Assembly: GCA_016184225.1 (NCBI GenBank)
Contig: JACPDA010000005.1
Span: forward strand, 3,590-67,589
DNA: 64,000 bases
Direction: 5' to 3'
Origin: Candidatus Daviesbacteria bacterium
Lineage (GTDB): Bacteria; Patescibacteriota; Microgenomatia; Daviesbacterales; UBA10151
Made by a program: the position numbers and the translations under genes. Shown one piece after another: positions 13,578 through 61,515 of the stretch (within the stretch, counting starts at the first letter, position 1; the number at the start of each line of letters is the position of its first letter). The notes under the pieces are model-generated. The model worked only from the letters and a program-made list of their open reading frames with translations, was not told the origin of the DNA and did no database searches.

Positions 13578-13652
13578 TGGAGCCGAGACCGGGATTTGAA
13601 CCCGGGACCTACTGTTTACAAAACAGTTGCTCTACCACTGAGCTATCTCGGC
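13578..13652 (-). tRNA. trnT: tRNA-Thr (anticodon TGT), CCA encoded
   Basis: Reverse complement GCCGAGATAGCTCAGTGGTAGAGCAACTGTTTTGTAAACAGT...GGTTCAAATCC...CTCGGCTCCA. Confidence 0.85.
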
Positions 13653-29442: not shown

Positions 29443-29556
29443 GTCATTGCGAGGAACGAGTCATCGAGTGACGTGGCAATCTTGATATGAGATTTATTCC
29501 CACTAAGATTGCTTCGCTAATCCCGATTGAATCGGGACTAATCGCTCGCAATGACG
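29443..29556. promoter_or_regulatory. Palindromic leader element: long inverted repeat (ACGTCATTGCGAG ... CTCGCAATGACG) enclosing a 48 nt motif TTGCTTCGCTAATCCCGATTGAATCGGGACTAATCGCTCGCAATGACGA, nearly identical to 49261-49308
   Basis: Seen in sequence; 47/48 nt identity with the copy upstream of dcd; both copies lie directly upstream of pyrimidine-metabolism genes. Confidence 0.5.
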
Positions 29557-29580: not shown

Positions 29581-30651
29581 ATGTTGCAGATGCCTTTCTA
29601 CGATCCGAATAAAAGCTATGAAGATAATTATGACCAGGGGCCGTTTGGGGCTTTTGTCGAAGGGGAAATCCTCGAGCAAACAGGGGAGCCAAAAGAGGAT
29701 TTTTTAGGGCAAAAAGTTTTTACTCCATTCGGAATTCCGGCAGGTCCACTGATAAATGCTAAGTTTTGTAAGGCTGCTTTTGAGAAGGGCTTTGATATTT
29801 GTGTTTATAAAACAGTCAGAAGCTCTGTCTTCCCCTGCCATCCTTTCCCCAATATTTTGGCTGTAAAACTCGAAGGCGATTTAACCTCTGAGAAGGCTAA
29901 AACTAAGCTTATTGCAGACAATAATTACTCCGAGCCTCTGTCCATTACCAACTCCTTTGGAGTGCCTTCCAAGAAGCCTAATGTTTGGCAGGAAGATGTT
30001 AAAAAGGCTTTTTTCTCTGCCGGAGCCGGCCAGGTTTTGGTTTTAAGCTTTATGGGTACTGTCCGGGAAGGTCAAACTGCGGAAGAGTTTGTGGCTGATT
30101 ATGCTTTGGCTGCCAAGCTCTCAAAAGAAACCGGTGCCAAAGTGCTGGAAGCCAATTTGTCCTGCCCAAATATAGGTAATGAAGGCTTAGTTTGTTATAA
30201 CTTGGAAATGACGGAAAAGGTTTGTGAAGCCATCAGGAAAGAAATTGGCGACACCCCTTTGGTCCTAAAAGTTGGTTACTATACCTCTGATGAAGATTTG
30301 AAAAAGCTGGTGGAAATAGCCGGAAAATATGCCAATGCTATTGCGGCCATTAATACCATTTCAGCTGAAGTGGTGAATCAGGAAGGTAAGCAGGCATTAC
30401 CGGGAAATAATAGGCTCCGTTCAGGGGTTTGTGGAGCTGGGATTAAGTGGGCCGGCCTGGATATGGTCAAAAGACTGAGAAAGGTAACAGGGTACAGGGT
30501 ACAGGGTACAGTAAAAATTATAGGTGTGGGTGGAGTAACTAAGCCGGAAGATTATTTTGAATACAGGCAAGCCGGGGCAGATGCTGTAATGTCGGCCACC
30601 GGAGCCATGTGGAACCCCTATTTAGCAAAGGAAATTAAAGAAAAAATCTGA
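29581..30651 (+). CDS. pyrD: Dihydroorotate dehydrogenase-family flavoenzyme (class 1 DHODH / dihydropyrimidine dehydrogenase-like)
   Basis: ANLSCPN active-site loop, IIGVGGV, FMN-binding pattern; next to pyrE and pyrF; contains an in-frame GGGTACA x3 repeat at 30488-30510. Confidence 0.7.
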   Translation: MLQMPFYDPNKSYEDNYDQGPFGAFVEGEILEQTGEPKEDFLGQKVFTPFGIPAGPLINAKFCKAAFEKGFDICVYKTVRSSVFPCHPFPNILAVKLEGDLTSEKAKTKLIADNNYSEPLSITNSFGVPSKKPNVWQEDVKKAFFSAGAGQVLVLSFMGTVREGQTAEEFVADYALAAKLSKETGAKVLEANLSCPNIGNEGLVCYNLEMTEKVCEAIRKEIGDTPLVLKVGYYTSDEDLKKLVEIAGKYANAIAAINTISAEVVNQEGKQALPGNNRLRSGVCGAGIKWAGLDMVKRLRKVTGYRVQGTVKIIGVGGVTKPEDYFEYRQAGADAVMSATGAMWNPYLAKEIKEKI

Positions 30652-35630: not shown

Positions 35631-36074
35631 ATGAAGACCTTAATCATTACATTAATAGTAGCTGCTTTCTTGCAAACTACAATTTTGCCGATAGACTTAT
35701 GTCTGTTAATTCTAATTTGCCGGGCATATATAAAATCCGACAAGAGTAATCTTTATCTTGCCTTTGCTTTTGGCCTTTTAACTGCCCATTTAAACTTAAG
35801 TGCATTAGGCCTTCAGAGTTTAATCTACTTAAGTATTGTCCAAGTGACCCAAATGTTGTCAAAAATCCGGCTGGCAGGAAACCCGTTACTTATCGTGCCA
35901 ATAACTGCAGTATTTTTATCTTTAAACCAGGTTATAAATTCACTCCTCCGCCACAGTGTATGGGAATTTTCCGGAGTAATTCTTGTTTCTTTCTTGTCTT
36001 TGCCAACTCTTTACATAATTAGATTTTGGGAAGAGCGATTTATTGTTAGAAAAGAAATTAAATTAAGAATCTAG
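35631..36074 (+). CDS. mreD: Rod shape-determining protein MreD (polytopic membrane protein)
   Basis: Position between mreC and mrdA; 5 TM helices. Confidence 0.5.
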   Translation: MKTLIITLIVAAFLQTTILPIDLCLLILICRAYIKSDKSNLYLAFAFGLLTAHLNLSALGLQSLIYLSIVQVTQMLSKIRLAGNPLLIVPITAVFLSLNQVINSLLRHSVWEFSGVILVSFLSLPTLYIIRFWEERFIVRKEIKLRI

Positions 36075-36137
36075 TGACTAGAGTCAAGAGTCAAGGAAAA
36101 TAAATTCTAGACTCTAGATTCTAGCGACTAGTCCCTA
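36072..36137. repeat. Family-C palindromic element (GAGTCAA/GAGTCTA heptamers, CTAGAGTCTAG cores) filling the mreD-mrdA spacer
   Basis: TAGTGACTAGAGTCAAGAGTCAAGG...TTCTAGACTCTAGATTCTAGCGACTAGTCCC. Confidence 0.8.
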
Positions 36138-38064: not shown

Positions 38065-39147
38065 GTGAATAATATTCCGTATTTGTTGGCGCTTCATTCC
38101 ATTGATGGACTGGGGCCGATTAGGTTACGGGCCATTTTAGAATATTTTAAAGACCCGAAGCTGGCTTGGGAAGCAAATGAAAATGAGCTTCTGAAGCTGG
38201 GCATTTTTAGAAACACGGTTAATCTTTTGGTGGAAACCCGGAAAAAACTGGATCCGGAAACTTATGCCAAAAAGATTGCTGAAAGCGGTATAAAGTGGAT
38301 TACGATTTTTGATGAGGCTTACCCAAAATTATTAGCCCAAATCTATGATCCGCCGATAGTAATTTATTATAAAGGGGAGCCGGATTGGGATAAAAAAGCG
38401 ATCGGGGTGGTGGGAACCAGAAAAATAACTGGTTACGGTAAAGTTGTAACAGAGAAGTTTACAAAAGGCTTAAGTTTAGCCGGTTTAACTATTGTTTCCG
38501 GGTTGGCCCGGGGGGTAGATGCACAGGCACATTTGACAGCAGTCTCGGAGAATGGTAAGACAATTGCAGTAATGGGCGGAGGATTAAATAATATTTTTCC
38601 TCCGGAAAATAGGGGCCTGGCGGCAAAAATTGCAGATAACTTTGGAGCAGTTATTTCCGAGTTTCCGCCAAATTATCCATCACTCCCAGGGAATTTCCCG
38701 GCAAGGAACAGGATTATATCGGGACTATCTTTGGGAGTTTTGGTGATTGAAGCGGCAGAAGATTCCGGGTCGCTTATTACTGCTAGGCTTGCTTTAGAGC
38801 AGGGTCGTGAAGTTTTTGCTGTTCCCGGTCCAATTACTTCTGATTTGTCAAAAGGTCCGATTGATCTGATTCGGGAGGGGGCGAGGATCGTATTTAGTCC
38901 GGAAGAGATTTTGGAAGAGTTGGGAATTAATAGAGTCAAGAGTCTAGAGTCAAGAGTCAAGAACGAAAGGGATCTTTCGGAAGAAGAAAGACAAATCTTG
39001 GAAGTTTTAGAAAACGAGAGCAGACATATTGATGAGATTGGCAGACAGTTAAATTTTCCTTCCCCAAAAATTTCTGCTTTGCTACTGAAAATGGAGATTT
39101 CAGGACTTGTAGAGAGCATGGGTGCTGGGATATACTGCAAGAAGTAA
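38065..39147 (+). CDS. dprA: DNA processing protein DprA/Smf (GTG start); contains an in-frame family-C heptamer block at 38929-38965
   Basis: GVVGTRKITGYGK...SGLARGVDAQAH Rossmann-like DprA core; C-terminal winged-helix extension. Confidence 0.85.
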   Translation: MNNIPYLLALHSIDGLGPIRLRAILEYFKDPKLAWEANENELLKLGIFRNTVNLLVETRKKLDPETYAKKIAESGIKWITIFDEAYPKLLAQIYDPPIVIYYKGEPDWDKKAIGVVGTRKITGYGKVVTEKFTKGLSLAGLTIVSGLARGVDAQAHLTAVSENGKTIAVMGGGLNNIFPPENRGLAAKIADNFGAVISEFPPNYPSLPGNFPARNRIISGLSLGVLVIEAAEDSGSLITARLALEQGREVFAVPGPITSDLSKGPIDLIREGARIVFSPEEILEELGINRVKSLESRVKNERDLSEEERQILEVLENESRHIDEIGRQLNFPSPKISALLLKMEISGLVESMGAGIYCKK

Positions 39148-39166: not shown

Positions 39167-39517
39167 ATGCCCAAACTAATCCTGTTTCTGATTGCTTTAA
39201 TTGTTGTTATCTTAACCGCTATCTTTACACTTATCTTCAATAATGCAGCACTGAAATCAACTTCTAAAAGTGAAATTGATACTGCTGTTAATCAAGCTCA
39301 ACATGTTTACCGTCAAAGGAAGAAAGTGAGTGAAGATTTCTCAACCGGCCCTTGTCTTTCAGATGCTTTAATGCCCGGGTGGGTGGCTGATATTGCCCAC
39401 AGTCCCCGCTTGCCTACCGACGACCTGCCGGAAAACCAATGCCCGGCATACCTGGAGGGAAGGGCAGAACATTTTGTAGAGCTTGATACAGAGGGGAATT
39501 TAATCAGAGCAAGATAG
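39167..39517 (+). CDS. Hypothetical membrane-anchored protein
   Basis: ORF with one N-terminal TM. Confidence 0.3.
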   Translation: MPKLILFLIALIVVILTAIFTLIFNNAALKSTSKSEIDTAVNQAQHVYRQRKKVSEDFSTGPCLSDALMPGWVADIAHSPRLPTDDLPENQCPAYLEGRAEHFVELDTEGNLIRAR

Positions 39518-39585
39518 AGTCAAGAGTCTAGAATCTAGAGTCTAGGAAAAAATTACTTGACTCTAGACTCTAGCGACTAGTCACT
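39515..39585. repeat. Family-C palindromic element filling the spacer before the Clp ATPase gene
   Basis: TAGAGTCAAGAGTCTAGAATCTAGAGTCTAGG...TTGACTCTAGACTCTAGCGACTAGTCACT. Confidence 0.8.
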
Positions 39586-42923: not shown

Positions 42924-43352
42924 GTGAAGAAAATAATTTTCCTCTTAGGAATACTGGCAGTTTTTGTACCAATAACTGTTTTTGCGGTCACAACTTCTGG
43001 AACAAGTCCAGAGATTCTTCGCTCCGCTCAGAATGACAAAGGGGGGTTAAATTCCTTATACCAAATAAACCAAAAAGTTTGTGACAGGTTTGAAACAGAC
43101 ATATTAAAGCTGGCGGCAATTATGGAAGAACTTAGAAGAAGAAAAGGAATTACGGAAACCAGGGTGGCTTTTGGGGGGACAGATACCCCGATTAAAAACG
43201 CTGATTATTGGGTGACTTACAGCGCAGAAGCGCTGGCCTTTCAACGGGCCCAAAAATATTCTTCCCAGGCCAGTTTGAGAAGCAGTTTGGAAGTTTTAAA
43301 AAATAAAATCTTAAGAGCTAAGAGTGAAGTAGGAAGGGCATTAAATGAATAA
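42924..43352 (+). CDS. Hypothetical secreted protein (signal peptide)
   Basis: ORF with an N-terminal hydrophobic segment. Confidence 0.3.
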   Translation: MKKIIFLLGILAVFVPITVFAVTTSGTSPEILRSAQNDKGGLNSLYQINQKVCDRFETDILKLAAIMEELRRRKGITETRVAFGGTDTPIKNADYWVTYSAEALAFQRAQKYSSQASLRSSLEVLKNKILRAKSEVGRALNE

Positions 43353-43688: not shown

Positions 43689-45839
43689 ATGACTAATTTA
43701 GTAATTGTGGAATCACCTACAAAAGCAAGAACACTGCAAAGATTTCTGGGTGATAAATATCAAATTGAAGCTTCCATGGGGCATGTCAGGGACCTGCCCA
43801 AGTCTGAGCTGGGAGTGGATGTGGATAAAAACTTTGAGCCCCAGTATATTATCCCCCGCGATAAGAAAAAAAGGGTAAATGAGCTAAAAAAAGTGGCAAA
43901 GACAGCAGATACCCTTTGGCTGGCTACAGATCCTGATCGGGAAGGTGAGGCGATCGCCTGGCATTTGTCAGAATTGCTGCGCAATTCTGAAGTGAAAAGT
44001 GCAAAGTGCAAAGTGCAAAGTGGGGAAACAGATATTAAAAGAGTAGTGTTTCATGAGATTACAGAACAAGCCATTAAGGAAGCCTTTGAGAATCCCAGAA
44101 GTATCGATCTAAAGCTGGTCGATGCCCAGCAAGCCAGAAGGGTACTGGACAGGTTGGTAGGTTATAAACTTTCTCCCTTGCTATGGGAAAAAGTTAAAAG
44201 AGGGTTGTCTGCCGGAAGAGTGCAATCCGTGGCCCTGCGGCTGATAGTGGAAAGAGAAAGGGAAGTTGTTGCTTTTAAGGCAGAGGAGTATTGGAATATT
44301 GAGGTAGAGCTGGAAGGTAACAGTGGACAGGCAACAGGCGACAGTTTCATTGCCACTTTAATAGAGCAAAACGGCAAGAAACTGGAAATCGGCAGTAAAG
44401 AGGAAGCAGATGGGCATGTTAAAAATTTGGAAAAAGCGCAGTATCAAGTTTCTAAGGTTACCCAAAGAGAGGTTCGCCGTTTCCCTTATCCGCCGTTTAC
44501 CACTTCAACTATGCAGCAGGCGGCAGCAAATAAACTTGGAATGTCTGCCAAAAAAACCATGATGCTCGCCCAAGCTTTGTATGAACACGGGTTGATTACC
44601 TACATGAGGACAGATTCTGTTAATTTATCCTCTCAGGCAATCGGAGCAGTAAGAGACTATATTGGAAATTTTATTGGCAAACCTTATTTGCCAAGTGTGG
44701 CCAGGGTTTTTAAGTCTAAATCCAAAAATGCCCAGGAAGCGCATGAGGCGATCAGGGTCACAGACGTCAGTCGTCAGTCGTCAGTCGTCAGACAAATTTC
44801 AAGTATGAATAAAGATCATGCCCGGCTTTATGAGCTGATTTGGAAAAGGTTTGTGGCTTGTCAAATGAATGAGGCGGTGATAGATCAGACCACGGTGGAT
44901 GTGAGTGCCGGCAACAATGTCATTCTGGGGACGAAAGAAGTGAGGACTCCAGAATCTTTAAGGAAGGATTCTGGACAAGCCAGAATGACATGCAACTATC
45001 TCCTTCGGGCAACCGGTAGTGTAATTAAGTTCGATGGCTGGTTAAAGCTATATGGCAAGGGTACAGGTGACAGTGAACAGGGGACAGAAGAAGATAAAGA
45101 AAAAATACTGCCGAAACTTGCAGAAAAAGAGCCGCTTAACCTGATTCAGCTTTTACCAGGCCAGCATTTTACAGAACCTCCCCCGAGATATAATGAGGCT
45201 TCTTTGATTAAAAAACTGGAGGAACTGGGGATTGGCCGGCCTTCTACTTATGCGCCGATTTTATCTACCATTCAGGAGCGGTTTTATGTGGAAAAATTGG
45301 AGAGAAAATTTATTCCAACCTCACTGGGTACAACTGTCATTGATTTTTTGATGGAGTATTTTGCGGATATTATTGACTATGCTTTTACCGCTCAAATGGA
45401 GGATGAGCTGGATGAGATAGCCAGGGGGGAAAGGCAGTGGCGCCCAACCATTAAAACGTTTTATGAACCATTTGAGAAAAAGTTGATTGAGACGGAAAAG
45501 AAAGCTAAAAAAGTGAAAATGGAAGTAGAGTTTGCTGGTAAAAAGTGTCCTGAGTGCGGGAAAGAGCTGATTGTCAGAATTGGCAAGTTTGGCAAGTTCC
45601 TGGCTTGTTCCGGTTTTCCGGAGTGCAAGCATACGGAATCTTTGGAAGAAAAAATTAATGCCAAGTGTCCGGATGACGGTGGGGATATTGTGGTCAGGCA
45701 TACCAAAAGAGGAAAAACTTTTTACGGCTGCAAAAACTGGCCGGTCTGCAAATTTGCTTCTTGGACAAAACCCAAGACAGGCAACAGTGCGCAGGCGACA
45801 GGCGACAGTAACACAGACAGCAAAAATGAGAACGCATAA
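43689..45839 (+). CDS. topA: DNA topoisomerase I with C-terminal zinc ribbons; carries at least six in-frame repeat blocks
   Basis: TOPRIM N-terminus (LVIVESPTKARTL), core domains, CPECGKEL...C and ...CKNWPVC zinc fingers. Confidence 0.9.
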   Translation: MTNLVIVESPTKARTLQRFLGDKYQIEASMGHVRDLPKSELGVDVDKNFEPQYIIPRDKKKRVNELKKVAKTADTLWLATDPDREGEAIAWHLSELLRNSEVKSAKCKVQSGETDIKRVVFHEITEQAIKEAFENPRSIDLKLVDAQQARRVLDRLVGYKLSPLLWEKVKRGLSAGRVQSVALRLIVEREREVVAFKAEEYWNIEVELEGNSGQATGDSFIATLIEQNGKKLEIGSKEEADGHVKNLEKAQYQVSKVTQREVRRFPYPPFTTSTMQQAAANKLGMSAKKTMMLAQALYEHGLITYMRTDSVNLSSQAIGAVRDYIGNFIGKPYLPSVARVFKSKSKNAQEAHEAIRVTDVSRQSSVVRQISSMNKDHARLYELIWKRFVACQMNEAVIDQTTVDVSAGNNVILGTKEVRTPESLRKDSGQARMTCNYLLRATGSVIKFDGWLKLYGKGTGDSEQGTEEDKEKILPKLAEKEPLNLIQLLPGQHFTEPPPRYNEASLIKKLEELGIGRPSTYAPILSTIQERFYVEKLERKFIPTSLGTTVIDFLMEYFADIIDYAFTAQMEDELDEIARGERQWRPTIKTFYEPFEKKLIETEKKAKKVKMEVEFAGKKCPECGKELIVRIGKFGKFLACSGFPECKHTESLEEKINAKCPDDGGDIVVRHTKRGKTFYGCKNWPVCKFASWTKPKTGNSAQATGDSNTDSKNENA

Positions 45840-46179
45840 AGATCTAACTGTTTGGCAGAAGTCCATGGATCTTGTAGAGAAAATCTATAAAATAACAAAC
45901 AATCTGCCTAGATCTGAATTATCCGGACTTATATCACAAATGCAGCGTTCTGCTGTCGCTATTCCATCAAATATTGCGGAAGGTGCCAAGCGAGAACATA
46001 GAGCAGAATATATTCAATTCCTTTCTATAGCTAACGGGTCTGCTTCAGAATTAGAAACACAACTTATCCTTACCAGTAAATTGTATCCTAACTTCAAGAT
46101 CGAGGTTAAAGATGCAATGATTGTTCTAGATGAAATATTAAAGATGCTTTATTCTTTGATGAAATCTTTAAAGAACTAA
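45826..46179 (+). CDS. Four-helix-bundle protein (Avd-like), paralog 4 of 4; overlaps the topA stop by 14 nt
   Basis: MRTHKDLTVWQKSMDLVEKIYKITNNLPRSELSGLISQMQRSAVAIPSNIAEGAKR...; the ORF-track N-terminal extension (45571-) overlaps topA and is treated as spurious. Confidence 0.65.
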   Translation: MRTHKDLTVWQKSMDLVEKIYKITNNLPRSELSGLISQMQRSAVAIPSNIAEGAKREHRAEYIQFLSIANGSASELETQLILTSKLYPNFKIEVKDAMIVLDEILKMLYSLMKSLKN

Positions 46180-46219
46180 CTGTTGCCTGTAGCCTACTGC
46201 CTGTAACCTAAAAAGATGC

Positions 46220-46305: not shown

Positions 46306-47967
46306 ATGAAATACATATTTGTCACAGGTGGTGTGATTAGTGGTTTAGGTAAGGGGATTGCCACCTCTTCAATTGCCCTGCTTTTGAAATCCGCAGGCTA
46401 TAAAGTTACCCCTATCAAGATGGATCCCTATTTAAATGTAGATGCCGGCACCATGAACCCGATTGAACACGGTGAAGTGTTTGTGCTGGATGACGGCACG
46501 GAAACTGATCAGGACTTAGGTCATTACGAGCGATTTTTGAATGAATCATTAAATGAAAAAAGTATAGCTACTCAAGGATCGATTTATCTTTCAGTAATTC
46601 AGCGGGAAAGAAATTTGGAATATGACGGGGAGTGCGTGGATGTTGTCACTTATGTGACAGAAGAAATCATCAAGCGGATTAAAGAAGCTGGTCGGGCCAG
46701 TAATGCTGATGTAGTGGTCATAGAAGTTGGCGGAACTACCGGCGAGTATCAAAATATCCTGTTTTTAGAAGCCAACAGGCTGATGAAATTAAAAAATCCG
46801 AGCGATGTCCTTCATGCCCACATTACTTATTTACCAATACCTGCCTCTATTGGTGAGATGAAGAGCAAGCCGGCCCAAATGTCTGTCCGGGATTTAAATG
46901 CCGTGGGAATCCAGCCTGATATCCTGTTGGCCAGAAGCGAGAAACCGCTGGACCAGCAAAGAATTAAAAAATTATCCATTTCCACCGGATTGGAACCGGC
47001 AGATATCATCTCTGCTCCTGATGTGGACAGTATTTATAAAGTGCCCCTGGGGTTTGATAATCAGAATCTAGCTCAGAGGTTACTGGATAAGTTGGGTTTG
47101 AAGAGGAAGAATGAAGACCTGCCTGCCGGCAGGCAGGTCATGAAGCAGTGGAAAGAATTTGTAGACAAAATTGATACTGCCAAAGATGTGGTCAAGATTG
47201 CCATTGTCGGCAAATACTTTTCTACCGGTGCTTTTACCCTGGCTGATTCATATATTTCTGTAATTGAAGCTGTCAAACATGCTGCCTGGGATCAAGGTTT
47301 AAAGCCGGAGATAACCTGGCTTGACAGCGGCAAAGTCTTGGATAATGTGGAAGTGCTCCGGAAATTCCAAGGTATTATTGTTCCCGGAGGGTTTGGTTCA
47401 AGGGATATTGAGGGTAAAATAGCTACTATCAAGTATGCCAGGGAAAATAAAATTCCCTATTTTGGACTCTGTTACGGCATGCAGCTTTCGGTAGTGGAAT
47501 ATGCCAGAAACGTATTGGAGCTCCCCGGAGCCCATACCACAGAGATTGACCCTGCTACTAAATATCCGGTCATTCATATTATGCCGGATCAAGAAAAGAA
47601 GATGCTAAATCGGGAATACGGGGCCACCATGAGGTTAGGGGCCTGGGATTGTAAGTTAAAAGAAGGTACGTATGTTTATAAATTGTATAAAGACTTTGCA
47701 CTTTCCACTTCACACTTTCCCCTTGTTTCTGAAAGGCACAGGCACAGGTTTGAGTTTAATAATGACTTTTTGGGCCAATTTATGAAAAAAGGGTTAACAA
47801 TTTCCGGTACTTCTCCTGACGGAAAGCTGGTAGAAATTATTGAACTGAAAGTCCATCCGTTTTTTGTGGGAACCCAGTTTCATCCTGAGTTAAAATCAAG
47901 GCCTCTGTCCCCGCATCCTTTGTTTGTGGGTTTCCTCAAAGCTGCTTCTAAGATCCATATAGCATGA
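46306..47967 (+). CDS. pyrG: CTP synthase
   Basis: MKYIFVTGGVISGLGKGI... synthetase domain plus a GATase domain (GLCYGMQ). Confidence 0.95.
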   Translation: MKYIFVTGGVISGLGKGIATSSIALLLKSAGYKVTPIKMDPYLNVDAGTMNPIEHGEVFVLDDGTETDQDLGHYERFLNESLNEKSIATQGSIYLSVIQRERNLEYDGECVDVVTYVTEEIIKRIKEAGRASNADVVVIEVGGTTGEYQNILFLEANRLMKLKNPSDVLHAHITYLPIPASIGEMKSKPAQMSVRDLNAVGIQPDILLARSEKPLDQQRIKKLSISTGLEPADIISAPDVDSIYKVPLGFDNQNLAQRLLDKLGLKRKNEDLPAGRQVMKQWKEFVDKIDTAKDVVKIAIVGKYFSTGAFTLADSYISVIEAVKHAAWDQGLKPEITWLDSGKVLDNVEVLRKFQGIIVPGGFGSRDIEGKIATIKYARENKIPYFGLCYGMQLSVVEYARNVLELPGAHTTEIDPATKYPVIHIMPDQEKKMLNREYGATMRLGAWDCKLKEGTYVYKLYKDFALSTSHFPLVSERHRHRFEFNNDFLGQFMKKGLTISGTSPDGKLVEIIELKVHPFFVGTQFHPELKSRPLSPHPLFVGFLKAASKIHIA

Positions 47968-48608
47968 AAAAAGGACAATTAATTGTTATAGAAGGAATTG
48001 ATGGGTCCGGTAAAACTACCCAAATCGATTTATTGGTAAAAGCTCTGGCAGAGAAAAATATTCCATATGAGGTAATTAGTTTCCCCAGATACGGAGATAA
48101 TATTTATGCAGATTTAGTGACAAGATATTTAGAAGGTGAGTTCGGTTCCCTAACGGAAGTGAATCCATATCTTTTGGCTTTAGCATTTGCAGGTGATAGG
48201 CTTTTGGCAAAACCGGAAATTGAAAAATGGCTTTCTGAGGGGAAGCTAGTGTTGGCCAACAGGTATGTTTCTGCCAATAAGGCCCACATGGGGGCTCATC
48301 TGTCGCAAGACCAAAGAGCAGAGTTTATTTCCTGGTTGGAAGAGCTGGAATACCAAACTAACCGGATGCCAAGAGAAGACTTAACAATTCTTTTGTCAGT
48401 TGATCCCAAAATAGGACAACAAAATGTTGCCGGCAGGCTGTCTGATCTTCATGAGGAAAATATTAAACACCTGGAGGAAGCAAATAAAATCTATTTGGAA
48501 TTATCTAGAAAAGAAGATAATTGGTGTGTAATTGATTGTATGAAAGATGGGAAAATGAGATCTGTGCAAGACATTCACCAAGAATTATTACCAATTTTGA
48601 CTTTTTAG
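47964..48608 (+). CDS. tmk: Thymidylate kinase
   Basis: LIVIEGIDGSGKTTQ P-loop; DRY-like region. Confidence 0.9.
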   Translation: MKKGQLIVIEGIDGSGKTTQIDLLVKALAEKNIPYEVISFPRYGDNIYADLVTRYLEGEFGSLTEVNPYLLALAFAGDRLLAKPEIEKWLSEGKLVLANRYVSANKAHMGAHLSQDQRAEFISWLEELEYQTNRMPREDLTILLSVDPKIGQQNVAGRLSDLHEENIKHLEEANKIYLELSRKEDNWCVIDCMKDGKMRSVQDIHQELLPILTF

Positions 48609-48638
48609 TATTTCTGTCATAGAATACTTAATCTATCT

Positions 48639-49190
48639 ATGCCAAAAATTGAAACAGCTGCAGAACTGGTTCAAACACTAACAACTAGTCTTTCAAGTTT
48701 AAATCGTGATACGTGTGTATCTAGACCAATGCCAGTTATAAGGTCTGAAGCAGAAAGCATGCAGATTTTCACAGAAGAGCTAAAAAGAAGCGACCTTCCG
48801 CATTTAGCTGAAGCAGTGGCTATTGTTCATAGGGGAGAATCAAAAGGAAAGGATGCAGGATTTAGTCTTACTGAAGCTGCTAGATTTAGAAGCCGCTTAA
48901 AAATAATGAGGGATTTTTATGCCGTAGCTTCTATGCCTAGCAATGTTTCTTTATTAGATGTTCCAGCTAAAGTAAAAAATGGTGAATATAGAGTAGGAGT
49001 AACAATAGGAGAAATAGCTGTAACACTCTATGAATTGGTCTTTGAAGCAGAGGGGATGGATTTTGATGGTACTGAGGCAACAGGTTACCGTGCACAGACT
49101 TTATCTGAACAAACAGGGATAGGAAAAAACCATTTAGATTTTGTTCTTTCGCCAATGATGGAAAGATTGCCTAATACCAGAATCGCTTAA
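48639..49190 (+). CDS. Hypothetical protein (183 aa)
   Basis: ORF only. Confidence 0.3.
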   Translation: MPKIETAAELVQTLTTSLSSLNRDTCVSRPMPVIRSEAESMQIFTEELKRSDLPHLAEAVAIVHRGESKGKDAGFSLTEAARFRSRLKIMRDFYAVASMPSNVSLLDVPAKVKNGEYRVGVTIGEIAVTLYELVFEAEGMDFDGTEATGYRAQTLSEQTGIGKNHLDFVLSPMMERLPNTRIA

Positions 49191-49260
49191 CAGTAATTTC
49201 CCACTTGAAAAAAGTGACAGATTGAATACAATTGTTTAATTCAGTCTCTAAAAATATAGA

Positions 49261-49308
49261 TTGCTACGCTAATCCCGATTGAATCGGGACTAATCGCTCG
49301 CAATGACG
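49261..49308. promoter_or_regulatory. Second copy of the 48 nt palindromic motif (TTGCTACGCTAATCCCGATTGAATCGGGACTAATCGCTCGCAATGACGA), directly upstream of dcd
   Basis: 47/48 identical to 29509-29556. Confidence 0.5.
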
Positions 49309-49320
49309 AAAGAAAAAACT

Positions 49321-50001
49321 ATGCCAAAGAAAAAGAAAAGATCCTGGACAAGCCAGGATGACAAAAATATTAGAGATGTTTTAGGAACCCTGCCTGATTG
49401 GGTTTTAAAAGAATATATTAAAAATGGCATTATCAAGATAGATCCGCTGCCGAAAGATTGGGAAAAAGCGGTGGACGAGGTGACTATTGATTTTCACTTA
49501 GGAAATAAACTGCGTGTTTTTACAGATGAGGGTTTAAACACCATAGATACCAGGTATGCCAGTAAAGAAGATATGGAATCTATGATGAGGTTGGTGGAAT
49601 TAAAACCAGGCCAACCGTTTATCCTGACAGAGCATGATTTTGTGATTGCCACGACTTATGAAAGGTTAAGCTTGCCGGATAATATTGTGGGGCACCTGCA
49701 TGGAAAAAGCTCCCTGGCTAGGTTAGGGGTGGTAGTCCATTCAACTGCTGCCAGATTTGATCCTGGTTGGGACGGGCATCCGGTTTTGGAATTTGGCACC
49801 TTTCTAAAAGGCAAGAAGCTGGTGATTTATGAGGGTAGCCCGATTTGCGCTTTTTCTTTTGAAAAGCTGGCAGCTCCTGTAGAGCGGTCTTATAAAAGCA
49901 GTCCTAATAACAGGTATGGGGGAAGTAATCTGCCGCAGGTTTCTAATTTGATGGGGAGGCGAGTGGCTCGTCACGTCACAAAGCACCGTTCGACCAGGTA
50001 A
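49321..50001 (+). CDS. dcd: dCTP deaminase-family protein (start set at MPKKKK, downstream of the palindromic motif)
   Basis: ...GKSSLARLGVVVH... and the dUTPase/dcd beta-barrel signature. Confidence 0.75.
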   Translation: MPKKKKRSWTSQDDKNIRDVLGTLPDWVLKEYIKNGIIKIDPLPKDWEKAVDEVTIDFHLGNKLRVFTDEGLNTIDTRYASKEDMESMMRLVELKPGQPFILTEHDFVIATTYERLSLPDNIVGHLHGKSSLARLGVVVHSTAARFDPGWDGHPVLEFGTFLKGKKLVIYEGSPICAFSFEKLAAPVERSYKSSPNNRYGGSNLPQVSNLMGRRVARHVTKHRSTR

Positions 50002-50068
50002 TCTGAAACATTAAGTAGTTCTCTGGTCTCACTATTTGAACATTTTGTGAATTAGATCTGCACACAAA

Positions 50069-50656
50069 ATGTTCCGAATGCAAAATATGAGTGTACTAGG
50101 ACTAGATGAAATACATAAAAGAATAAAGAAACATTCCCTAATCAAGAATTTAGGCCATAGGGATTTGAAAAACCCGGAAGGGGTAGGGATAGATTTGCGG
50201 TTAGGTTCTGTTCATAAAATCGTTAAAGGCGGGGCTTTTATTGAAGGCGACAGGCAACAGGCACTAGGCAGTAGAAAGGGAGTTAAGACAAAAGAGGTTG
50301 CTAAATTTCAGCAGGAAAAAGAAGAGCAAGAATGGATTGTAATAAAGCCCGGAGAATATTATTTAGCTCAGACTGTAGAAATAATCAATACCCCTTTGGA
50401 TTTAATGCCGGAAGTTTTCACCAGGACTTCACTTTTTAGAGCCGGACTATTGCTCTTGAATTCAAAAACAGATCCCGGTTACAATGGACAGCTGACAATG
50501 GGGTTAACTAATTTAAGTCCTTTTCCGGTTAAACTGCAGCTGGGGGCCAGGATTTGTAATATAATTTTTCATAAAATAAAGGGCAAAACAGTTTCTTACC
50601 AGGGACAGCATCAGGGTGGTAGGGTAAGTCCGAAGAAAGCAGAGAGACAAGTATGA
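50069..50656 (+). CDS. Second dCTP deaminase/dUTPase-superfamily paralog
   Basis: ...FTRTSLFRAGLLL...DPGYNGQLTMGL... dcd/dut pattern; contains a heptamer block GGCGACA GGCAACA GGCACTA GGCAGTA. Confidence 0.55.
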   Translation: MFRMQNMSVLGLDEIHKRIKKHSLIKNLGHRDLKNPEGVGIDLRLGSVHKIVKGGAFIEGDRQQALGSRKGVKTKEVAKFQQEKEEQEWIVIKPGEYYLAQTVEIINTPLDLMPEVFTRTSLFRAGLLLLNSKTDPGYNGQLTMGLTNLSPFPVKLQLGARICNIIFHKIKGKTVSYQGQHQGGRVSPKKAERQV

Positions 50657-51618
50657 GCAGACCGAAGCATCAAGAATATCAATATCTGGATTTACTAAAA
50701 GACATTCTAAAAAATGGCGTTAAAAAAATTGATCGGGGTACTGATGTAGCTTTGTATAGTGTTTTTGGCCGCCAGATCCGCTTTGATCTTTCGCAAGGGT
50801 TTCCGCTTTTAACCACCAAAAAAGTGTATTGGAAGGGAGTTTTGGAAGAACTTTATTGGTTTTTTTCAGGACAATCAAATATCAAATATTTGGTAGACCG
50901 TAATGTCCACATCTGGGATGATTATCCATATAAGATTTATAGTGCCAAGTGCCAAGTGCAAAGTGCAAAGTGTTTGACCAAGGAAAAATTTATAGAGAAG
51001 ATCAGGACTGATGAGCAATTTGCCAAGAAATGGGGAGAGTTACCAAGGATTTATGGTGAGATGTGGAGACGCTGGCCCACCAGAACAAAAAGAACCATTG
51101 ATCAACTGAAATGGATAGTCCAGGAATTAAAAGATGATCCTGATGCCAAAAATTTAATTGTTAATTCCTGGAATCCCGAATATTTATATACCATGGCTAC
51201 ATATGAAGATACTTCCCATTTTCCGATTTGTCACAATATGTTTCAGATTAACCAAAGAGCAGGTAAGCTTTCCTTGCAGCTTTATCATCGCAGCTGTGAT
51301 GTTTTCTTGGGTGTGCCTTTTAATATCGCAAGTTATGCATTACTGACTATGGTTTTAGCTAAAATTACGGGATATGAGCCGGGTGAATTTATTCATACTT
51401 TTGGTGATGTCCATATTTACGAAAATCATATGGCTCAAGTTAAAGAGCAGATTAAAAGAAAACCTAAGCATTTTCCCACCGTAAAAATAGATAAAGGCTT
51501 AAAAACAATTGAAGACTTTAAGCCGGAACTGGTAACTTTAGAAAATTATGATCCGCATCCGGTAATAAAAGCTGAGTTAACTGTGGCAGGTGGATATTAT
51601 GCAAAAACCAAAAGTTAG
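50653..51618 (+). CDS. thyA: Thymidylate synthase (ThyA type) with an insertion containing a heptamer tandem repeat (50941-50972)
   Basis: ...PICHNMFQINQRAGKLSLQLYHRSCDVFLGVPFNIASYALL... catalytic Cys region. Confidence 0.9.
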   Translation: MSRPKHQEYQYLDLLKDILKNGVKKIDRGTDVALYSVFGRQIRFDLSQGFPLLTTKKVYWKGVLEELYWFFSGQSNIKYLVDRNVHIWDDYPYKIYSAKCQVQSAKCLTKEKFIEKIRTDEQFAKKWGELPRIYGEMWRRWPTRTKRTIDQLKWIVQELKDDPDAKNLIVNSWNPEYLYTMATYEDTSHFPICHNMFQINQRAGKLSLQLYHRSCDVFLGVPFNIASYALLTMVLAKITGYEPGEFIHTFGDVHIYENHMAQVKEQIKRKPKHFPTVKIDKGLKTIEDFKPELVTLENYDPHPVIKAELTVAGGYYAKTKS

Positions 51619-52093
51619 TATTATTGTGGCCCTAGCCGGAAGCAAAAGAGTAATCGGCAAAAAGGGCGGCATGCCTTGGTATATTCCGGAGGAGCTAAAA
51701 AGGTTTAAAGAAATTACCATGGGTCACCCGATTATCATGGGAAGAAGGACCCATGGGTCTATCGGAAAAGTTTTGCCAGGAAGAGTAAATATTGTGATCA
51801 CTCGTGACTCCTCTTATCTGTCGGAGGGTATGAAAGTTACTCATTCGCTGGAAGAAGCTTTGCAGCTGGCAAAGGATCAACCTGGAAATGATGAGGTATT
51901 CGTGATCGGTGGAGGAGAAATCTACAAACAGGCTGTGCCTATTGCTGATAAGCTGTATCTGACAGTGATTGATATGGAAATAGAAGGAGACACATTTTTC
52001 CCGGATTATTCGGAGTTTAAAAGGATAGTCTGGCAGTCGCCGGAGCAGGAATCAGATGGGCTTAAATACAGGTTTTTGGAGTTGGAGCGATAA
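51590..52093 (+). CDS. folA: Dihydrofolate reductase
   Basis: ISIIVALAGSKRVIGKKGGMPWYIPEELKRFKEITMGHPIIMGRRT. Confidence 0.85.
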   Translation: MDIMQKPKVSIIVALAGSKRVIGKKGGMPWYIPEELKRFKEITMGHPIIMGRRTHGSIGKVLPGRVNIVITRDSSYLSEGMKVTHSLEEALQLAKDQPGNDEVFVIGGGEIYKQAVPIADKLYLTVIDMEIEGDTFFPDYSEFKRIVWQSPEQESDGLKYRFLELER

Positions 52094-52233
52094 ATAATTT
52101 ACTAATACCGATTGACAATCAATCTCTTATAAGTTAAACTGAGGCACATTACACATCTATCAGTTTACCCCGATTAGATCGGGGTTTAGGTTTTCCTGGA
52201 ACTATATTGCTGATAGAGAGGAACAAGGAAAAC

Positions 52234-53239: not shown

Positions 53240-53689
53240 ATGAAGATTAATGATATAAAAAAATTAAGAGAAGAGACAGGGGCGGGGATTGCCGACTGTA
53301 AGGAGGCTCTGAGCTTGTCGAAGGGCGATATAGAGAAAGCCAAGGAGTGGTTAAAGCAGAAGGGTTTGGATAAAGCTTCTTCCAAACTTGCAAGGGAAGT
53401 TAAAGCCGGGATAGTGGAAGTTTATTCCCATGGTGGGAAAGTGGGGGTTTTGGTAGAAGTCCTCTGTGAGACTGATTTTGTGGCCAGAACCGAGGATTTC
53501 AAAAATTTAGCCCACGAACTTGCTTTGCAGATTGCTTCCATGAACCCGGCAAGCGTTGAAGAATTACTGGCGGAGGAGTATATTAGGGATAATTCTTTGA
53601 CTGTGGAGCAGTTGATTAAATCAGTGATAGGAAAGTTGGGAGAAAATATACAAGTTGGAAGGTTTGAGAGGATAGCTTTGGGAGAATAG
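53240..53689 (+). CDS. tsf: Elongation factor Ts, short form (149 aa)
   Basis: LREETGAGIADCKEAL...; GGAGG SD. Confidence 0.8.
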   Translation: MKINDIKKLREETGAGIADCKEALSLSKGDIEKAKEWLKQKGLDKASSKLAREVKAGIVEVYSHGGKVGVLVEVLCETDFVARTEDFKNLAHELALQIASMNPASVEELLAEEYIRDNSLTVEQLIKSVIGKLGENIQVGRFERIALGE

Positions 53690-53758
53690 AGTCTAGAGTC
53701 AAGAATCTAGAGTCTAGGAAAACAAAGTCTAGACTCTCGACTCTAGCAACTAGTCACT
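53687..53758. repeat. Family-C palindromic element filling the tsf-frr spacer (begins at the tsf TAG)
   Basis: TAGAGTCTAGAGTCAAGAATCTAGAGTCTAGG...GTCTAGACTCTCGACTCTAGCAACTAGTCACTAT. Confidence 0.8.
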
Positions 53759-53765
53759 ATTAAAC

Positions 53766-56271: not shown

Positions 56272-56832
56272 ATGAATGACAAAAAAATTCTAACAAGAGA
56301 GGTTTTAAAAGTGATTGCAGTAAGTGGGATATTAATCGGTTCTGCTTTTCTGCCCACCCTACCTATGGCTGCCGGGGCAGTTATCAAAGCCTGGAAAGAT
56401 ATAAATAAAAAGGATCTTGGAAGAATAATCAAAAGGCTTGAAAAGCAGGAGATGATCTTTATGGAAGAAAGGGCTGACGGTAAGATGGCAATACAGATTA
56501 CTGATAAAGGTAGGAAAAGGTTATTGGAATATGATTTTGAGAATATAGAACTGAAGACTAAAAGACGTGATGGGAAATGGAGGTTGGTGATATTTGATAT
56601 CCCGGAGGACAAGAAAAATGCCAGGGATGTTTTTAGAAGAAAACTTTTACAACTGGATTTTATCAGGCTTCAAGACAGTGTTTTTGCTAGTGCTTATCCT
56701 TGTAAGGCGGAAGTGGATTTTTTGTGTCATTTCTTGGGAATCTCAGATTTTGTAACCTTAGTTTCTTTAAATAAAATAGAAAGAGGGGAACAACTGATTT
56801 GGAAAAAGTATCGAGACTTTGGTGACAATTAG
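56272..56832 (+). CDS. PaaX-like wHTH plus Cas2-like-fold protein (paralog 3 of 3)
   Basis: ...TKRRDGKWRLVIFDIPEDKKNARDVFRRKLLQLDFIRLQDSVFAS...; flanked by direct repeats 56202-56237 and 56826-56856. Confidence 0.5.
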   Translation: MNDKKILTREVLKVIAVSGILIGSAFLPTLPMAAGAVIKAWKDINKKDLGRIIKRLEKQEMIFMEERADGKMAIQITDKGRKRLLEYDFENIELKTKRRDGKWRLVIFDIPEDKKNARDVFRRKLLQLDFIRLQDSVFASAYPCKAEVDFLCHFLGISDFVTLVSLNKIERGEQLIWKKYRDFGDN

Positions 56833-59371: not shown

Positions 59372-60493
59372 ATGATAGCTAAAAATATTGTTAAACAGCC
59401 AAAATCAATAGTTGAAGTAACGATTACTGTTCCCTGGAGTGATTTGCAGGTAACTTGGGATGCTACTCTGCAGCGAATGGCCGGCGAAGTTGAGTTGTCC
59501 GGTTTTAGAAAAGGGCAAGCGCCGCTTCCCATGGTAGAAGGCCAACTGGGAGTTAAACTTCAAGATGAGGTTTTGAAAGTAGCCATGCCCAATTTTCTAA
59601 TTGAAGCATTGAAAGGCACAGATATTATCCCGATTGATTATCCAAAATATGACCTGGTTTCTTTTGTGAAAGGCCAACAGTTGCAGTTTAAGGCAACCAT
59701 TACCAACAGGCCTGCCGTAACTGTCGGAAATTACAAAACTATAAAAGTTGCAAGACCGGCTCCAAAATCCGTTACTGAAGAAGAAGTCCAGAAAGTGATT
59801 GATGATTTATTTAAGAGATGGCAGACTAGGAATCCTATCAACAAGCAGGATTCTGGAGTCGCTGGCGCTCCCCAGAATGACAAAGCAGGACAAACTGGGT
59901 CGATTAGTTTTCAGGGGGGCAATCCTTCGGCAAGCTCAGGACCTGCGGCATCGGTCAATGGTCAGGCAGATGCGCCAAATGATGAGTTTGCCAAAGCCAT
60001 GGGAGCTTTAAGTTTGTCAGACTTAAAATCCAAAATCAGAAAAGACTTGGAATCCAATGTTACTTATAACAATGAATTAGATTTTGAAGAGGCGATTTTA
60101 CAGGAAGTAGAAAAAATGACAACAGTAGAACTGCCGGAAATTCTCATACAAGATGAATTAAACAGGATGTTGGTGTCTTTGCAAAGACGCGTGGCGGATA
60201 TGGGGCTTTTACTGGAGGATTACTTAAAAAGCCAAGGGAAAACTTTAGAGCAAATTAAAAGTGAGTGGAGGGTGCAGGCTGAGAAAAATGTCAGGATGGA
60301 ACTGGGTCTGGCGGAAGTGGCCAGGATGGAGAATGTGACAATTTCTGACAACGAACTCCAGGCAGAAGTAGATAAAATTCAGGACAATAAGGTTAAACAG
60401 CAATTTGAGGCTCAAGAACCAAGATTACATTTAAGACACGCTTTGCGACAAACCAGGACCCTGGATCTTCTCAAAAAGATGGTGGGAGGATAA
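59372..60493 (+). CDS. tig: Trigger factor-like chaperone lacking the PPIase domain, with a low-complexity insert
   Basis: N-terminal ribosome-binding domain ...ELSGFRKGQAPLPMVEGQLG... Confidence 0.7.
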   Translation: MIAKNIVKQPKSIVEVTITVPWSDLQVTWDATLQRMAGEVELSGFRKGQAPLPMVEGQLGVKLQDEVLKVAMPNFLIEALKGTDIIPIDYPKYDLVSFVKGQQLQFKATITNRPAVTVGNYKTIKVARPAPKSVTEEEVQKVIDDLFKRWQTRNPINKQDSGVAGAPQNDKAGQTGSISFQGGNPSASSGPAASVNGQADAPNDEFAKAMGALSLSDLKSKIRKDLESNVTYNNELDFEEAILQEVEKMTTVELPEILIQDELNRMLVSLQRRVADMGLLLEDYLKSQGKTLEQIKSEWRVQAEKNVRMELGLAEVARMENVTISDNELQAEVDKIQDNKVKQQFEAQEPRLHLRHALRQTRTLDLLKKMVGG

Positions 60494-61059: not shown

Positions 61060-61515
61060 ATGTTACTTGAAGAGTTACAAGCCGATTTAAAAAATGCTCA
61101 ACTGGCTCGTGACGCAGTTAAAGTTTCTACCCTAAGATTACTCTTGTCGGAAGTTAAAAACAAAGAAATTGAGAAGGGTAATCCGCCAGCTGGCGGATTA
61201 TCTGATGATGACATAATTTCTATTGTCCAACGGGAAGTGAAGAAAAGAAAAGAAGCGGCAGCAGGCTTTAGGTCCGGTGGCAGAGAGGAATCAGCGGTGC
61301 GGGAAGAAGCTGAACTTAAGGTTTTGGAGGCTTACCTTCCGGCACAGATGGGTAGTGAGGAGTTGACTAAACTAGTGGAAGAGACTATAAATGAGTTGGG
61401 GGCAAGCTCGCTTGCAGATATGGGGAAGGCAATAGGAGCGGTAATGAGTAAGACTAAGGGGCGGACTGATGGTGGGACGGTAAGTAATTTAGTAAGAGAA
61501 AAGCTGTCAAAATAA
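61060..61515 (+). CDS. GatB/YqeY domain protein
   Basis: YqeY family sequence. Confidence 0.8.
   Translation: MLLEELQADLKNAQLARDAVKVSTLRLLLSEVKNKEIEKGNPPAGGLSDDDIISIVQREVKKRKEAAAGFRSGGREESAVREEAELKVLEAYLPAQMGSEELTKLVEETINELGASSLADMGKAIGAVMSKTKGRTDGGTVSNLVREKLSK

Follow-up and report, generated by a model that had tools for sequence, protein, structure and literature searches.

In-frame heptanucleotide arrays and hairpin elements in the topoisomerase I gene of Candidatus Daviesbacteria and its relatives

The DNA analyzed here, called the window below, is a 64-kb stretch of contig JACPDA010000005.1 from Candidatus Daviesbacteria, a member of the Candidate Phyla Radiation (CPR)/Patescibacteria (Microgenomates). 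The window has a G+C content of 41.7%. It contains topA, encoding a type IA DNA topoisomerase I, and the coding sequence of topA carries small repeats at six sites. Five are tandem arrays of a 7-nt unit (heptamer arrays) and one is a palindromic (hairpin) element. The initial annotation had noted six repeat features within an intact gene, and on both counts it was right: each feature was recovered at or beside its reported position, and the reading frame is open from 43689 to 45839 over 716 codons. The palindromic element, first placed at 44945-44990, is real but larger, spanning 75 nt at 44917-44991. The gene and its repeats, numbered in gene order, are:

43689-45839, + strand: topA, type IA DNA topoisomerase I, 716 aa, uninterrupted open reading frame (ORF)
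43990-44022, + strand: site 1, AAGTGCA x4.7 (Tandem Repeats Finder (TRF), 96% matches)
44326-44355, + strand: site 2, degenerate array GGTAACA GTGGACA GGCAACA GGCGACA GT (our own reading)
44761-44791, + strand: site 3, CAGTCGT x4.4 (TRF, 95% matches)
44917-44991, + strand: site 4, 75-nt palindromic (hairpin) element (terminal inverted repeats and fold)
45058-45087, + strand: site 5, weak array GGTACAG GTGACAG TGAACAG GGGACAG (TRF, x4.3, score 32, 69% matches)
45776-45820, + strand: site 6, GACAGGC-type array (TRF 45776-45808, x4.7, 78% matches, decaying to 45820)

The TopA protein has 100% identity to the NCBI entry 'type I DNA topoisomerase [Candidatus Daviesbacteria bacterium]', and its close homologs are all labeled Candidatus Daviesbacteria. 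It consists of a Toprim domain (PF01751), a Topoisom_bac domain (PF01131) and two Zn ribbons (PF01396), and it is matched by E. coli TopA with an E-value of 6e-159. The Toprim DxDxE motif with the N-terminal Glu, the catalytic Tyr and the Zn ribbons identify it as a type IA topoisomerase. The catalytic residues E8, D81, D83, E85, Y305, R307 and H352 are invariant across an alignment of 76 TopA sequences. Within TopA, Pfam finds only topoisomerase domains, with no intein or other splicing domain, and Rfam at the gathering threshold returns three tRNAs for the whole window and no intron or other RNA family.

A first AlphaFold model, built from 29 close homologs, reached a predicted local distance difference test (pLDDT) score of 57, with an unusable Toprim domain. 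It was replaced by a second AlphaFold (AF2) model based on the 76-sequence alignment, which was built after a profile search (pLDDT 80.9, predicted template modeling score 0.77). The core of this model superposes on the E. coli 67-kDa fragment (1mw9/1ecl, Foldseek) with a template modeling (TM) score of 0.93-0.95 and a root-mean-square deviation of 1.7-2.3 Å. The pLDDT falls below 50 at residues 33-42, 101-112, 214-216, 346-348, 411-432, 459-469 and 698-716, and five of these segments are repeat sites 1, 2, 4, 5 and 6. The alignment to E. coli TopA has query-only segments at places matching the low-pLDDT repeat sites. As judged from the model, mapping onto E. coli TopA puts the extra segments in surface loops or the tail, outside the catalytic core, as the initial annotation had anticipated. 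Because the inserts lie in loops or the tail and the catalytic residues are invariant, they do not interrupt conserved catalytic segments. Going by its sequence and predicted fold, topA looks functional, with its core untouched by the repeats. A pseudogene or an assembly artifact, the two outcomes named at the outset as grounds for discarding the observation, can be regarded as effectively refuted. Counting against them are an open ORF, conserved catalytic residues and a fold model of high confidence. The arrays, at 33 nt or less, are below sequencing read length, and they recur in independent assemblies of the orthologs described below (CAGTCGT in L003, L041 and L017; GGCAACA in L004 and L008).

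Arrays were called with TRF and their significance was taken from 2000 codon shuffles of topA. Four period-7 arrays scoring 8 or more were observed against 0.05 per shuffled gene, and 0/2000 shuffles reached four. Site 1 encodes aa 101-112 (KSAKCKVQSGE), a Toprim-domain loop placed between helix 84-97 and strand 115-118 and modeled with pLDDT <50. The segment is missing from E. coli TopA (a 12-residue gap) and from the closest orthologs, L001, L003 and L004. The site 1 unit and its reading frame recur in thyA at 50941-50972. Site 2 encodes aa 213-223 (GNSGQATGDS), the turn of a beta-hairpin between strands 200-210 and 219-227, with pLDDT <50 at 214-216. TRF reports this site as 44311-44344, period 14/7, of the GGCAACA type with 81-85% matches. 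Site 5 encodes aa 457-467 (GTGDSEQGT), a loop between helix 450-454 and strand 482-494 with pLDDT <50 at 459-469. This array is too degenerate to pass the codon-shuffle test alone, and its backing consists of the unit and frame it has in common with sites 2 and 6 together with a matching array in ortholog L011, also shared by P0008.

Site 3 is different in kind. It encodes aa 358-368 (VSRQSSVVRQ), which follow the conserved HEAIR motif directly and are modeled with confidence as a structured segment (pLDDT ~88, helix 364-369). The segment is 54/57/87 nt long (minimum/median/maximum) across the 39 topA genes compared below and exceeds its E. coli counterpart by three residues only. The alignment and the model thus show a native segment written in 7-nt periodic DNA, length-neutral, and not an insertion. 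Lineages differ in their unit: CAGTCGT in the window, L003, L041 and L017; AAGGGNN in L001, L002, L004, L005, L011, L020 and L026; CAGGCAA in L009; and GTCAAAT in L006. Many partly homogenized intermediates occur among the orthologs, and in L007, L015, L030 and L033 a hairpin of equal length replaces the array. From these sequences, site 3 looks like a case of concerted evolution or in-place replacement rather than insertion.

The site 4 element has perfect 12-nt terminal inverted repeats, ATGTCATTCTGG/CCAGAATGACAT, plus an inner 12-nt hairpin, and its RNA fold has an energy of -32.5 kcal/mol (z = -5.5). It encodes aa 410-435 (NVILGTKEVRTPESLRKDSGQARMTC), the turn of a beta-hairpin in the arch domain that joins strands 396-408 and 436-448 (pLDDT <50 at 411-432). 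E. coli TopA is without this segment, and the junction, 421|422, is clean. Site 6 encodes the C-terminal tail of TopA, TGNSAQATGDSNTDS, with pLDDT <50 at 698-716.

At the DNA level we compared the window topA with 38 Daviesbacteria orthologs, 39 genes in all, referred to where needed by L numbers. All 39 are in frame. The six sites prove to be hot spots of indels and repeats across Daviesbacteria. Period-7 arrays are present at site 1 in 15/39 genes, at site 2 in 10/39 and at site 3 in 17/39, against a background of 1.4% of 60-nt windows elsewhere in topA; periods 5, 6, 8 and 9 together are nearly absent. The units turn over between lineages. At site 1 they are AAAGTGC in the window, AAAGTCA in L005, AAACTCA in L009, CGAAATC in L014, TACCGAC plus GAAGACG in L041 and AAAGGGG plus TTCACCC in L058. 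At the position of site 2 they are GGCAACA (a perfect x4 array in L004) or AGAGTCA (a perfect x4 array in L024). The core of L004 topA is only ~77-80% identical in nucleotides to all other orthologs, yet its four-unit array is perfect, so arrays would be made or homogenized faster than species diverge.

About half of the 39 genes, the sister L001 among them, have nothing inserted at site 4. In the others its occupants vary: the GTCATTCTGG element in the window and L002; a GTCATTGCGAG...CTCGCAATGAC element in L004 and, as half a copy, in L031; a CCACCTCGGAGG...CCTCCGAGGTG element in L005, L013, L014, L015, L030 and L035; a GGGTCCTGCCGGCTC element in L034; and CAGTCGT arrays in L006, L007 and L011. 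At least four unrelated hairpin families are therefore found at this site across lineages, and the L002 copy of the window's element bears two additional hairpins. Hairpin inserts are also nested within arrays, at site 1 in L002 and L006, at site 2 in L009 and L021, and at site 3 in L029. The initial description of six independent insertions holds insofar as the sites are different, but site 3 is length-neutral and site 6, described below, is the arm of a cassette. Nor are these six events private to this genome; most of the sites are recurrent hot spots patchily common to the orthologs.

The recurrence of extensions in identical loops across many lineages might suggest that the encoded peptides are selected as functional flexible, charged or disordered loops, for partner binding or solubility. 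The peptides are hydrophilic, and other CPR TopA proteins (L047, L056, L060, L065) have insertions at sites 1 and 4 as well. A precedent exists in Borg proteins, in which tandem repeats create disordered regions and the unit lengths within ORFs are divisible by three (Schoelmerich et al., 2023, PMC9879509). The in-ORF tandem repeats found here likewise keep the frame and add probably disordered peptide. However, Borg units yield perfect amino-acid repeats, whereas a 7-nt unit is kept in frame by the total length of the array only, and a 7-nt period is meaningless for a protein. Peptides at one site are unrelated between lineages, many orthologs (the sister L001 among them) have no insert at all, the distribution is patchy, and identical DNA units are present in intergenic DNA. 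We consider adaptive loop extension decidedly unlikely. Phase variation, in which gain or loss of a 7-nt unit would toggle the reading frame of a contingency locus, is suggested by the unit length itself, since 7 is not a multiple of three and slippage by one unit shifts the frame. The hosts (topA, thyA, trigger factor and GatB-type genes) are housekeeping rather than surface or antigen genes, the arrays are short (4-5 units) and often degenerate, and not one of the 39 topA genes is out of frame, all of which makes this explanation highly improbable.

The heptamer arrays are a genome- and clade-wide feature and not a peculiarity of topA. Exact period-7 arrays of at least 17 nt number 13 in the 64 kb and 0 in Markov shuffles, and none of that length was found in the window at periods 8-15, so that period 7 alone is enriched. 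With mismatches allowed, the window holds 18 period-7 arrays in genes, at gene ends and in intergenic DNA. Those in frame within other genes include:

50941-50972, + strand: AGTGCAA/AGTGCCA array in the thymidylate synthase gene (thyA), in frame (SAKCQVQSAKC)
38932-38962, + strand: AGAGTCA array in dprA, in frame, in the linker that joins the DprA domain to the winged helix
50245-50274: in-frame array in a dCTP deaminase-like gene
30487-30511: in-frame array in a DHODH-like gene
23946-23977 and 24158-24186: in-frame arrays in a Wzy_C/TPR membrane protein gene

Two dCTP deaminase genes hold in-frame arrays or hairpin elements. Beyond the window, exact period-7 arrays are common in 22-kb topA loci of Daviesbacteria, Gottesmanbacteria and Levybacteria; in topA loci of other phyla they are nearly absent, with a single one in L059. 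In 0.96 Mb of Daviesbacteria DNA we counted 77 arrays with 38 canonical units. The units ACGACTG, AAAACTC, AAGAGTC and AAAGTGC recur in 4-8 genomes, and the main unit families are CAGTCGT, AGAGTCA, AAAGTGC, GGCAACA and others. The units of coding copies are also found in intergenic DNA.

The site 4 element likewise has relatives outside topA. Those in the window are:

24612-24676, - strand: sister copy, in frame in the Wzy_C/TPR membrane protein (aa 239-260)
59850-59885, + strand: half copy of the element family, in frame in trigger factor (aa 160-172), between the N and C domains
43004-43040 and 49343-49365: fragments of the element

In a hypothetical signal-peptide protein (42924-43352), residues ~28-40 read ILRSAQNDKGG and are encoded by CCAGAGATTCTTCGCTCCGCTCAGAATGACAAAGG, a half hairpin element of the GTCATTCTGAGCGGAGCGAAGAATC type. 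The 22-mer ATTCTGGACAAGCCAGAATGAC from the site 4 element was found on at least 120 metagenome contigs. It is a single hairpin module that usually forms a pair with another, for example TGTCATTCCCGCTTGTCGGGAATCC or GTCATTCTGGGGAGCGAAGCGACTCCAGAATC. Among the matches listed, ~80% of the copies are intergenic and ~17% lie in frame within unrelated conserved proteins: 17 of the 96 copies with enough flank fall inside open frames of at least 150 codons, and 10 of these 17 use the frame DSGQARMT, as in topA. By Pfam, the hosts include an ATP-dependent DNA ligase, a class II aminoacyl-tRNA synthetase, a P-type ATPase, a GT2 glycosyltransferase, GatB, a DUF2298 membrane protein, a Mur ligase, YchF, RNase H and a cobalamin adenosyltransferase. 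In one GT2 glycosyltransferase (metagenome locus L136, 84-1064, aa ~190-235), an array peptide, QKSKVKSQKFNSKFKS, adjoins a VILGRREATTPES..DSGQARMT hairpin element. The motif GTCATYSY is only ~3-fold enriched in Daviesbacteria loci, so the copy number of the element per genome would be modest in the regions sampled.

The association of arrays and hairpins raises the possibility of targeted insertion, in which arrays or DNA motifs at the hot spots are preferred integration targets for further arrays and hairpin elements; such behavior has been reported for small dispersed repeats in heptamer arrays of cyanobacteria. The idea is compatible with the explanation we favor below. The hairpins nested in arrays at sites 1, 2 and 3, the array that directly abuts a hairpin element in L136 and the insertion of different families at exactly one codon junction at site 4 are all in keeping with it. 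Still, the hot spots coincide with permissive loops, as selection alone predicts; site 4 is empty and array-free in about half of the orthologs, which leaves no obvious prior repeat target; and the insertion borders showed no conserved target motif. Targeting is thus possible, though on balance unlikely.

Site 6 belongs to a further structure. Directly downstream, and overlapping the topA stop by 14 nt, is a gene for a PF05635 protein, and site 6 forms the 5' one of two mutually inverted arms that bracket it. The features are:

45826-46179, + strand: gene for a PF05635 '23S rRNA-intervening sequence protein', a four-helix bundle, bAvd-like (Pfam 1.7e-34)
46184-46210, + strand: 3' arm of the cassette, CTGTTGCCTGTAGCCTACTGCCTGTAACC, the reverse complement of an ACAGGCN array (TRF, period 14)
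12965-13321 (-), 17848-18237 (-), 22940-23305 (-) and 45826-46179 (+): the four PF05635 genes of the 64 kb

A GNSxQxTGDS tail occurs in 6/39 topA loci. In five of these six a PF05635 gene lies directly 3' of topA, as it does in 0/33 loci without the tail, and this co-occurrence identifies the site 6 tail as read-through of topA into the cassette arm. Each of the four PF05635 genes in the window lies between two short tandem arrays, one the reverse complement of the other, with period 7 in three cases and period 11 at 17848-18237. The arrangement is reminiscent of an rRNA intervening sequence, whose stem encloses its ORF. Both flanks carry period-7 arrays in 5/10 PF05635 genes and in 7/594 control ORFs (Fisher p = 3e-7), and flank complementarity is above that of controls (Mann-Whitney p = 5.5e-4). 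The local-alignment score of the flanks separates the two moderately, with 2/10 above the control 95th percentile, and less clearly than the count of arrays on both flanks. The sample is small, with 10 PF05635 genes, three of them orthologous. The window's tRNA genes are at 13382-13453, 13581-13652 and 12048-12118, all on the - strand; one of them has the cassette at 12965-13321 immediately on its 3' side, and a tRNA end and a cassette are arranged likewise in locus L135.

The window also holds three near-identical elements of ~65-75 nt, at 36072-36135, 39510-39582 and 53683-53760, each consisting of an AGAGTCT/AGAGTCA array followed by its reverse complement. These inverted AGAGTCT/AGACTCT pairs enclose no gene, lie just after the end of a gene and before the next, and fold at -24 to -26 kcal/mol (z -2.5 to -4.9). 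They could act as terminators or RNA-stabilizing hairpins.

It is conceivable that solo arrays and gene-less inverted pairs are remnants or non-autonomous derivatives of PF05635 cassettes. Such an origin would fit the reverse-complementary arrays around all four window genes, the excess of both-flank arrays and raised flank complementarity relative to controls, the co-occurrence of site 6 with a downstream PF05635 gene, and the three gene-less pairs after gene ends. But the test comprises 10 genes with three orthologs among them, most arrays (sites 1-5 included) are remote from PF05635 genes, one of the four cassettes has period-11 arms, and we know of no DNA-moving enzymatic activity in the PF05635 family. 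We regard a cassette origin of the arrays as fairly unlikely.

The explanation we prefer is that two classes of small repeats, abundant in this genome and its Microgenomates relatives, probably colonized topA and were filtered by selection to permissive loops. The first class comprises the tandem arrays, ~4-5 units of 7 nt drawn from a few recurring unit families, which may arise and homogenize locally by slipped-strand mispairing or gene conversion. The second comprises modular hairpin elements with GTCATTC...GAATGAC termini, similar to repetitive extragenic palindromic (REP) sequences or miniature inverted-repeat transposable elements (MITEs), which presumably spread in trans. Both classes appear to be mainly intergenic. 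Coding copies would survive only where they are in frame, stop-free and in a structurally permissive place, with purifying selection removing the rest, and this retention of permissive copies would be why the same few TopA loops are reoccupied across lineages. The encoded peptides are probably short, hydrophilic, disordered passengers. The enrichment of both classes, their spread over many genes, their position in loops and tails, the reoccupation of sites by unrelated sequences, the nesting and the recent homogeneity of some arrays are observed directly, whereas the mechanisms, the selection filter and the passenger status of the peptides are inferred. Known selfish-repeat classes plus selection account for the behavior of the repeats, apart from the length-neutral turnover of units and the association of arrays with PF05635 genes.

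Several observations weigh against this explanation. The site 4 element in topA is bordered by GCAACAA and GCAACTA (GCAAC on both sides), at best an ambiguous target-site duplication, and the flanks of the sister copy at 24612-24676 have no comparable duplication. Pfam finds no RAYT/IS200-type (Y1_Tnp) or other transposase among the ~70 ORFs of the 64-kb window. Sharing of arrays is patchy on the tree. Outside the repeat segments, the flanking sequence is not unusually similar between genes that share an array, and ancient retention, convergence and recombination are therefore inseparable. Two Daviesbacteria TopA proteins of the 90% cluster of P0027, P0193 and P0195 (95% identical), have 4 differences over residues 141-673 and 36 over residues 1-140, and only one of them has the array at site 1; this mosaic around site 1 reflects either recombination between alleles or a chimera made in assembly. 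That the peptides are neutral is an assumption. Finally, slippage of a 7-nt array by one unit would shift the frame and be lethal in an essential gene, so that the length-neutral turnover of units at site 3 is not readily explained.

Nearest neighbors in sliding windows along topA switch at each repeat site; recombination was considered as the cause of the patchy sharing, and flank identity gives no evidence for or against it. Length variants within 90% clusters are mostly start-site or C-terminal differences. The P0193/P0195 pair was set aside as a record of gain or loss in situ, P0195 coming from an 'SRC' source only, without a contig on record.

The behavior of site 3 leaves room for a different process, in which Daviesbacteria and related Microgenomates would possess an active mechanism working in a 7-nt register that writes or homogenizes arrays in place, even within essential genes, without change of length, perhaps tied to the multi-copy PF05635 (Avd-like) genes. 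We think this quite unlikely. If true, it would be a new cassette or templated repeat-writing system, unlike ordinary slippage.

The initial annotation, while judging the sequences unrelated, compared the insertions to Rickettsia palindromic elements (RPEs), which Ogata et al. are said to have described in 2000 as in-frame palindromes in protein-coding genes. The analogy is apt for the 75-nt element, which has in-frame copies in unrelated proteins, and not for the heptamer arrays, which are closer to the cyanobacterial arrays discussed below. Like an RPE, the site 4 element is a dispersed palindrome found in intergenic DNA and in frame in unrelated conserved genes, and its peptide is predicted to lie in a surface loop, compatible with fold and function. 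It differs in being shorter (~60-75 nt) and modular with GTCATTC/GAATGAC ends, most copies of its 22-mer are intergenic (~80%), and its host is a CPR bacterium and not Rickettsia, which excludes membership among the RPEs. The element works like an RPE, which is not to say that it is one.

The arrays are most reminiscent of the short tandemly repeated repetitive (STRR) sequences, heptanucleotide arrays reportedly found in the cyanobacteria Calothrix and Nostoc by Mazel et al. in 1990. Small dispersed repeats are said to nest in these cyanobacterial arrays (Elhai and co-workers, reportedly in 2008). The units of STRR1-3 are reportedly CCCCAGT, TTGGTCA and CAACAGT, and the host is said to be a heterocystous cyanobacterium. 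As in STRRs, the arrays in the window have a 7-nt unit in several families, are dispersed and over-represented relative to other periods, and contain nested hairpin repeats. Their units (CAGTCGT, AAAGTGC, AGAGTCA, GGCAACA and others) are not those of the STRRs and their host is a CPR bacterium. GGCAACA, a rotation of CAACAGG, is presumably one base from the STRR3 unit CAACAGT. Unlike STRRs, many of the arrays sit inside housekeeping genes, at orthologous hot spots with lineage-specific unit turnover, a situation that to our knowledge has not been described for STRRs.

Genome-wide over-representation of heptamers is known elsewhere. TAACTGA direct repeats occur in Beggiatoaceae, Cyanobacteria and Bacteroidetes (MacGregor, 2015, PMC4679880), and G-rich heptamers are over-represented in Xanthomonas and Nostoc (Rehm et al., 2015, PMC4692102). 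These are likewise mostly intergenic and near gene ends, with few ORF copies at the protein periphery. In those genomes one unit dominates and a regulatory role just upstream of start codons has been proposed, whereas the Daviesbacteria arrays have many units, sit in loops inside essential enzymes and show no evident G-quadruplex potential. REP sequences and REPINs are mobilized by RAYT transposases and are extragenic by definition (Bertels and Rainey, 2011, PMC3116915). The hairpin elements resemble them as short imperfect palindromes with a conserved terminal motif that form hairpin doublets and are mainly intergenic, but ~17% of the 22-mer copies are in frame in genes, and Pfam found no RAYT gene in the 64 kb of the genome covered. 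As regards MITEs, the terminal inverted repeats of the site 4 element match at 12/12 positions and its target-site duplication is ambiguous. Our search of the CPR/Patescibacteria literature found nothing on heptamer arrays or in-frame palindromic elements, and searching with the repeat motif strings gave unrelated primer and vector matches only. Thus, in-frame arrays and hairpins in CPR bacteria are apparently undescribed so far. By analogy, the arrays are best seen as STRR-like and the hairpin elements as RPE/REP-like, in a new phylum, with clear hot spots at orthologous positions and unusually frequent occupation of essential genes.

Other palindromes are present in the window. Perfect GC-rich hairpins number 14 against 3.9 expected. 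One is a perfect 24-nt palindrome, GACCTGCCTGCCGGCAGGCAGGTC, in pyrG at 47116-47139, in frame (DLPAGRQV, aa 271-278) in the linker that joins the CTP synthase N domain to the GATase domain; its core (LPAGRQ) is also inserted at topA site 5 of locus L021. Others are in PBP1 (5326-5345) and YqeY (61179-61200). Two nearly identical 47-nt copies of AGATTGCTwCGCTAATCCCGATTGAATCGGGACTAATCGCTCGCAATGACGA occur just upstream of the DHODH-like gene (29508-29556) and of the first dCTP deaminase-like gene (49260-49308). They belong to the ...CTCGCAATGAC hairpin family, the occupant of topA site 4 in L004, and a related hairpin lies upstream of rpsB at 52167-52185. Downstream of topA, 46306-52093 holds a compact group of nucleotide-metabolism genes (pyrG, thymidylate kinase, two dCTP deaminase-like paralogs, thyA and DHFR), several of them with in-frame repeats. 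The window also has three small paralogous PaaX_M (Cas2-like) genes, at 9230-9733, 12212-12727 and 56272-56829 (E-values 1e-19 to 1e-22).

CPR genomes are small and usually called streamlined, and nonetheless this one tolerates selfish repeats in essential enzymes such as TopA, ThyA, trigger factor and DprA. Selfish DNA in coding genes, known mainly from Rickettsia, would thereby extend to a second, very different lineage with reduced genomes, and a second class of repeat, whose unit length is not divisible by three, would be added to it. Length variation and low complexity in CPR marker proteins can be repeat-derived and homoplastic, which calls for caution in annotation and phylogenetics. 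The link between PF05635 genes and arrays, together with the length-neutral turnover of units, may offer a handle on the over-representation of heptanucleotides in some bacteria. The occupied sites, at which different lineages have repeated one insertion experiment, amount to a natural map of permissive loops in conserved proteins, which may be useful for protein engineering and for understanding odd insertions in CPR proteins.

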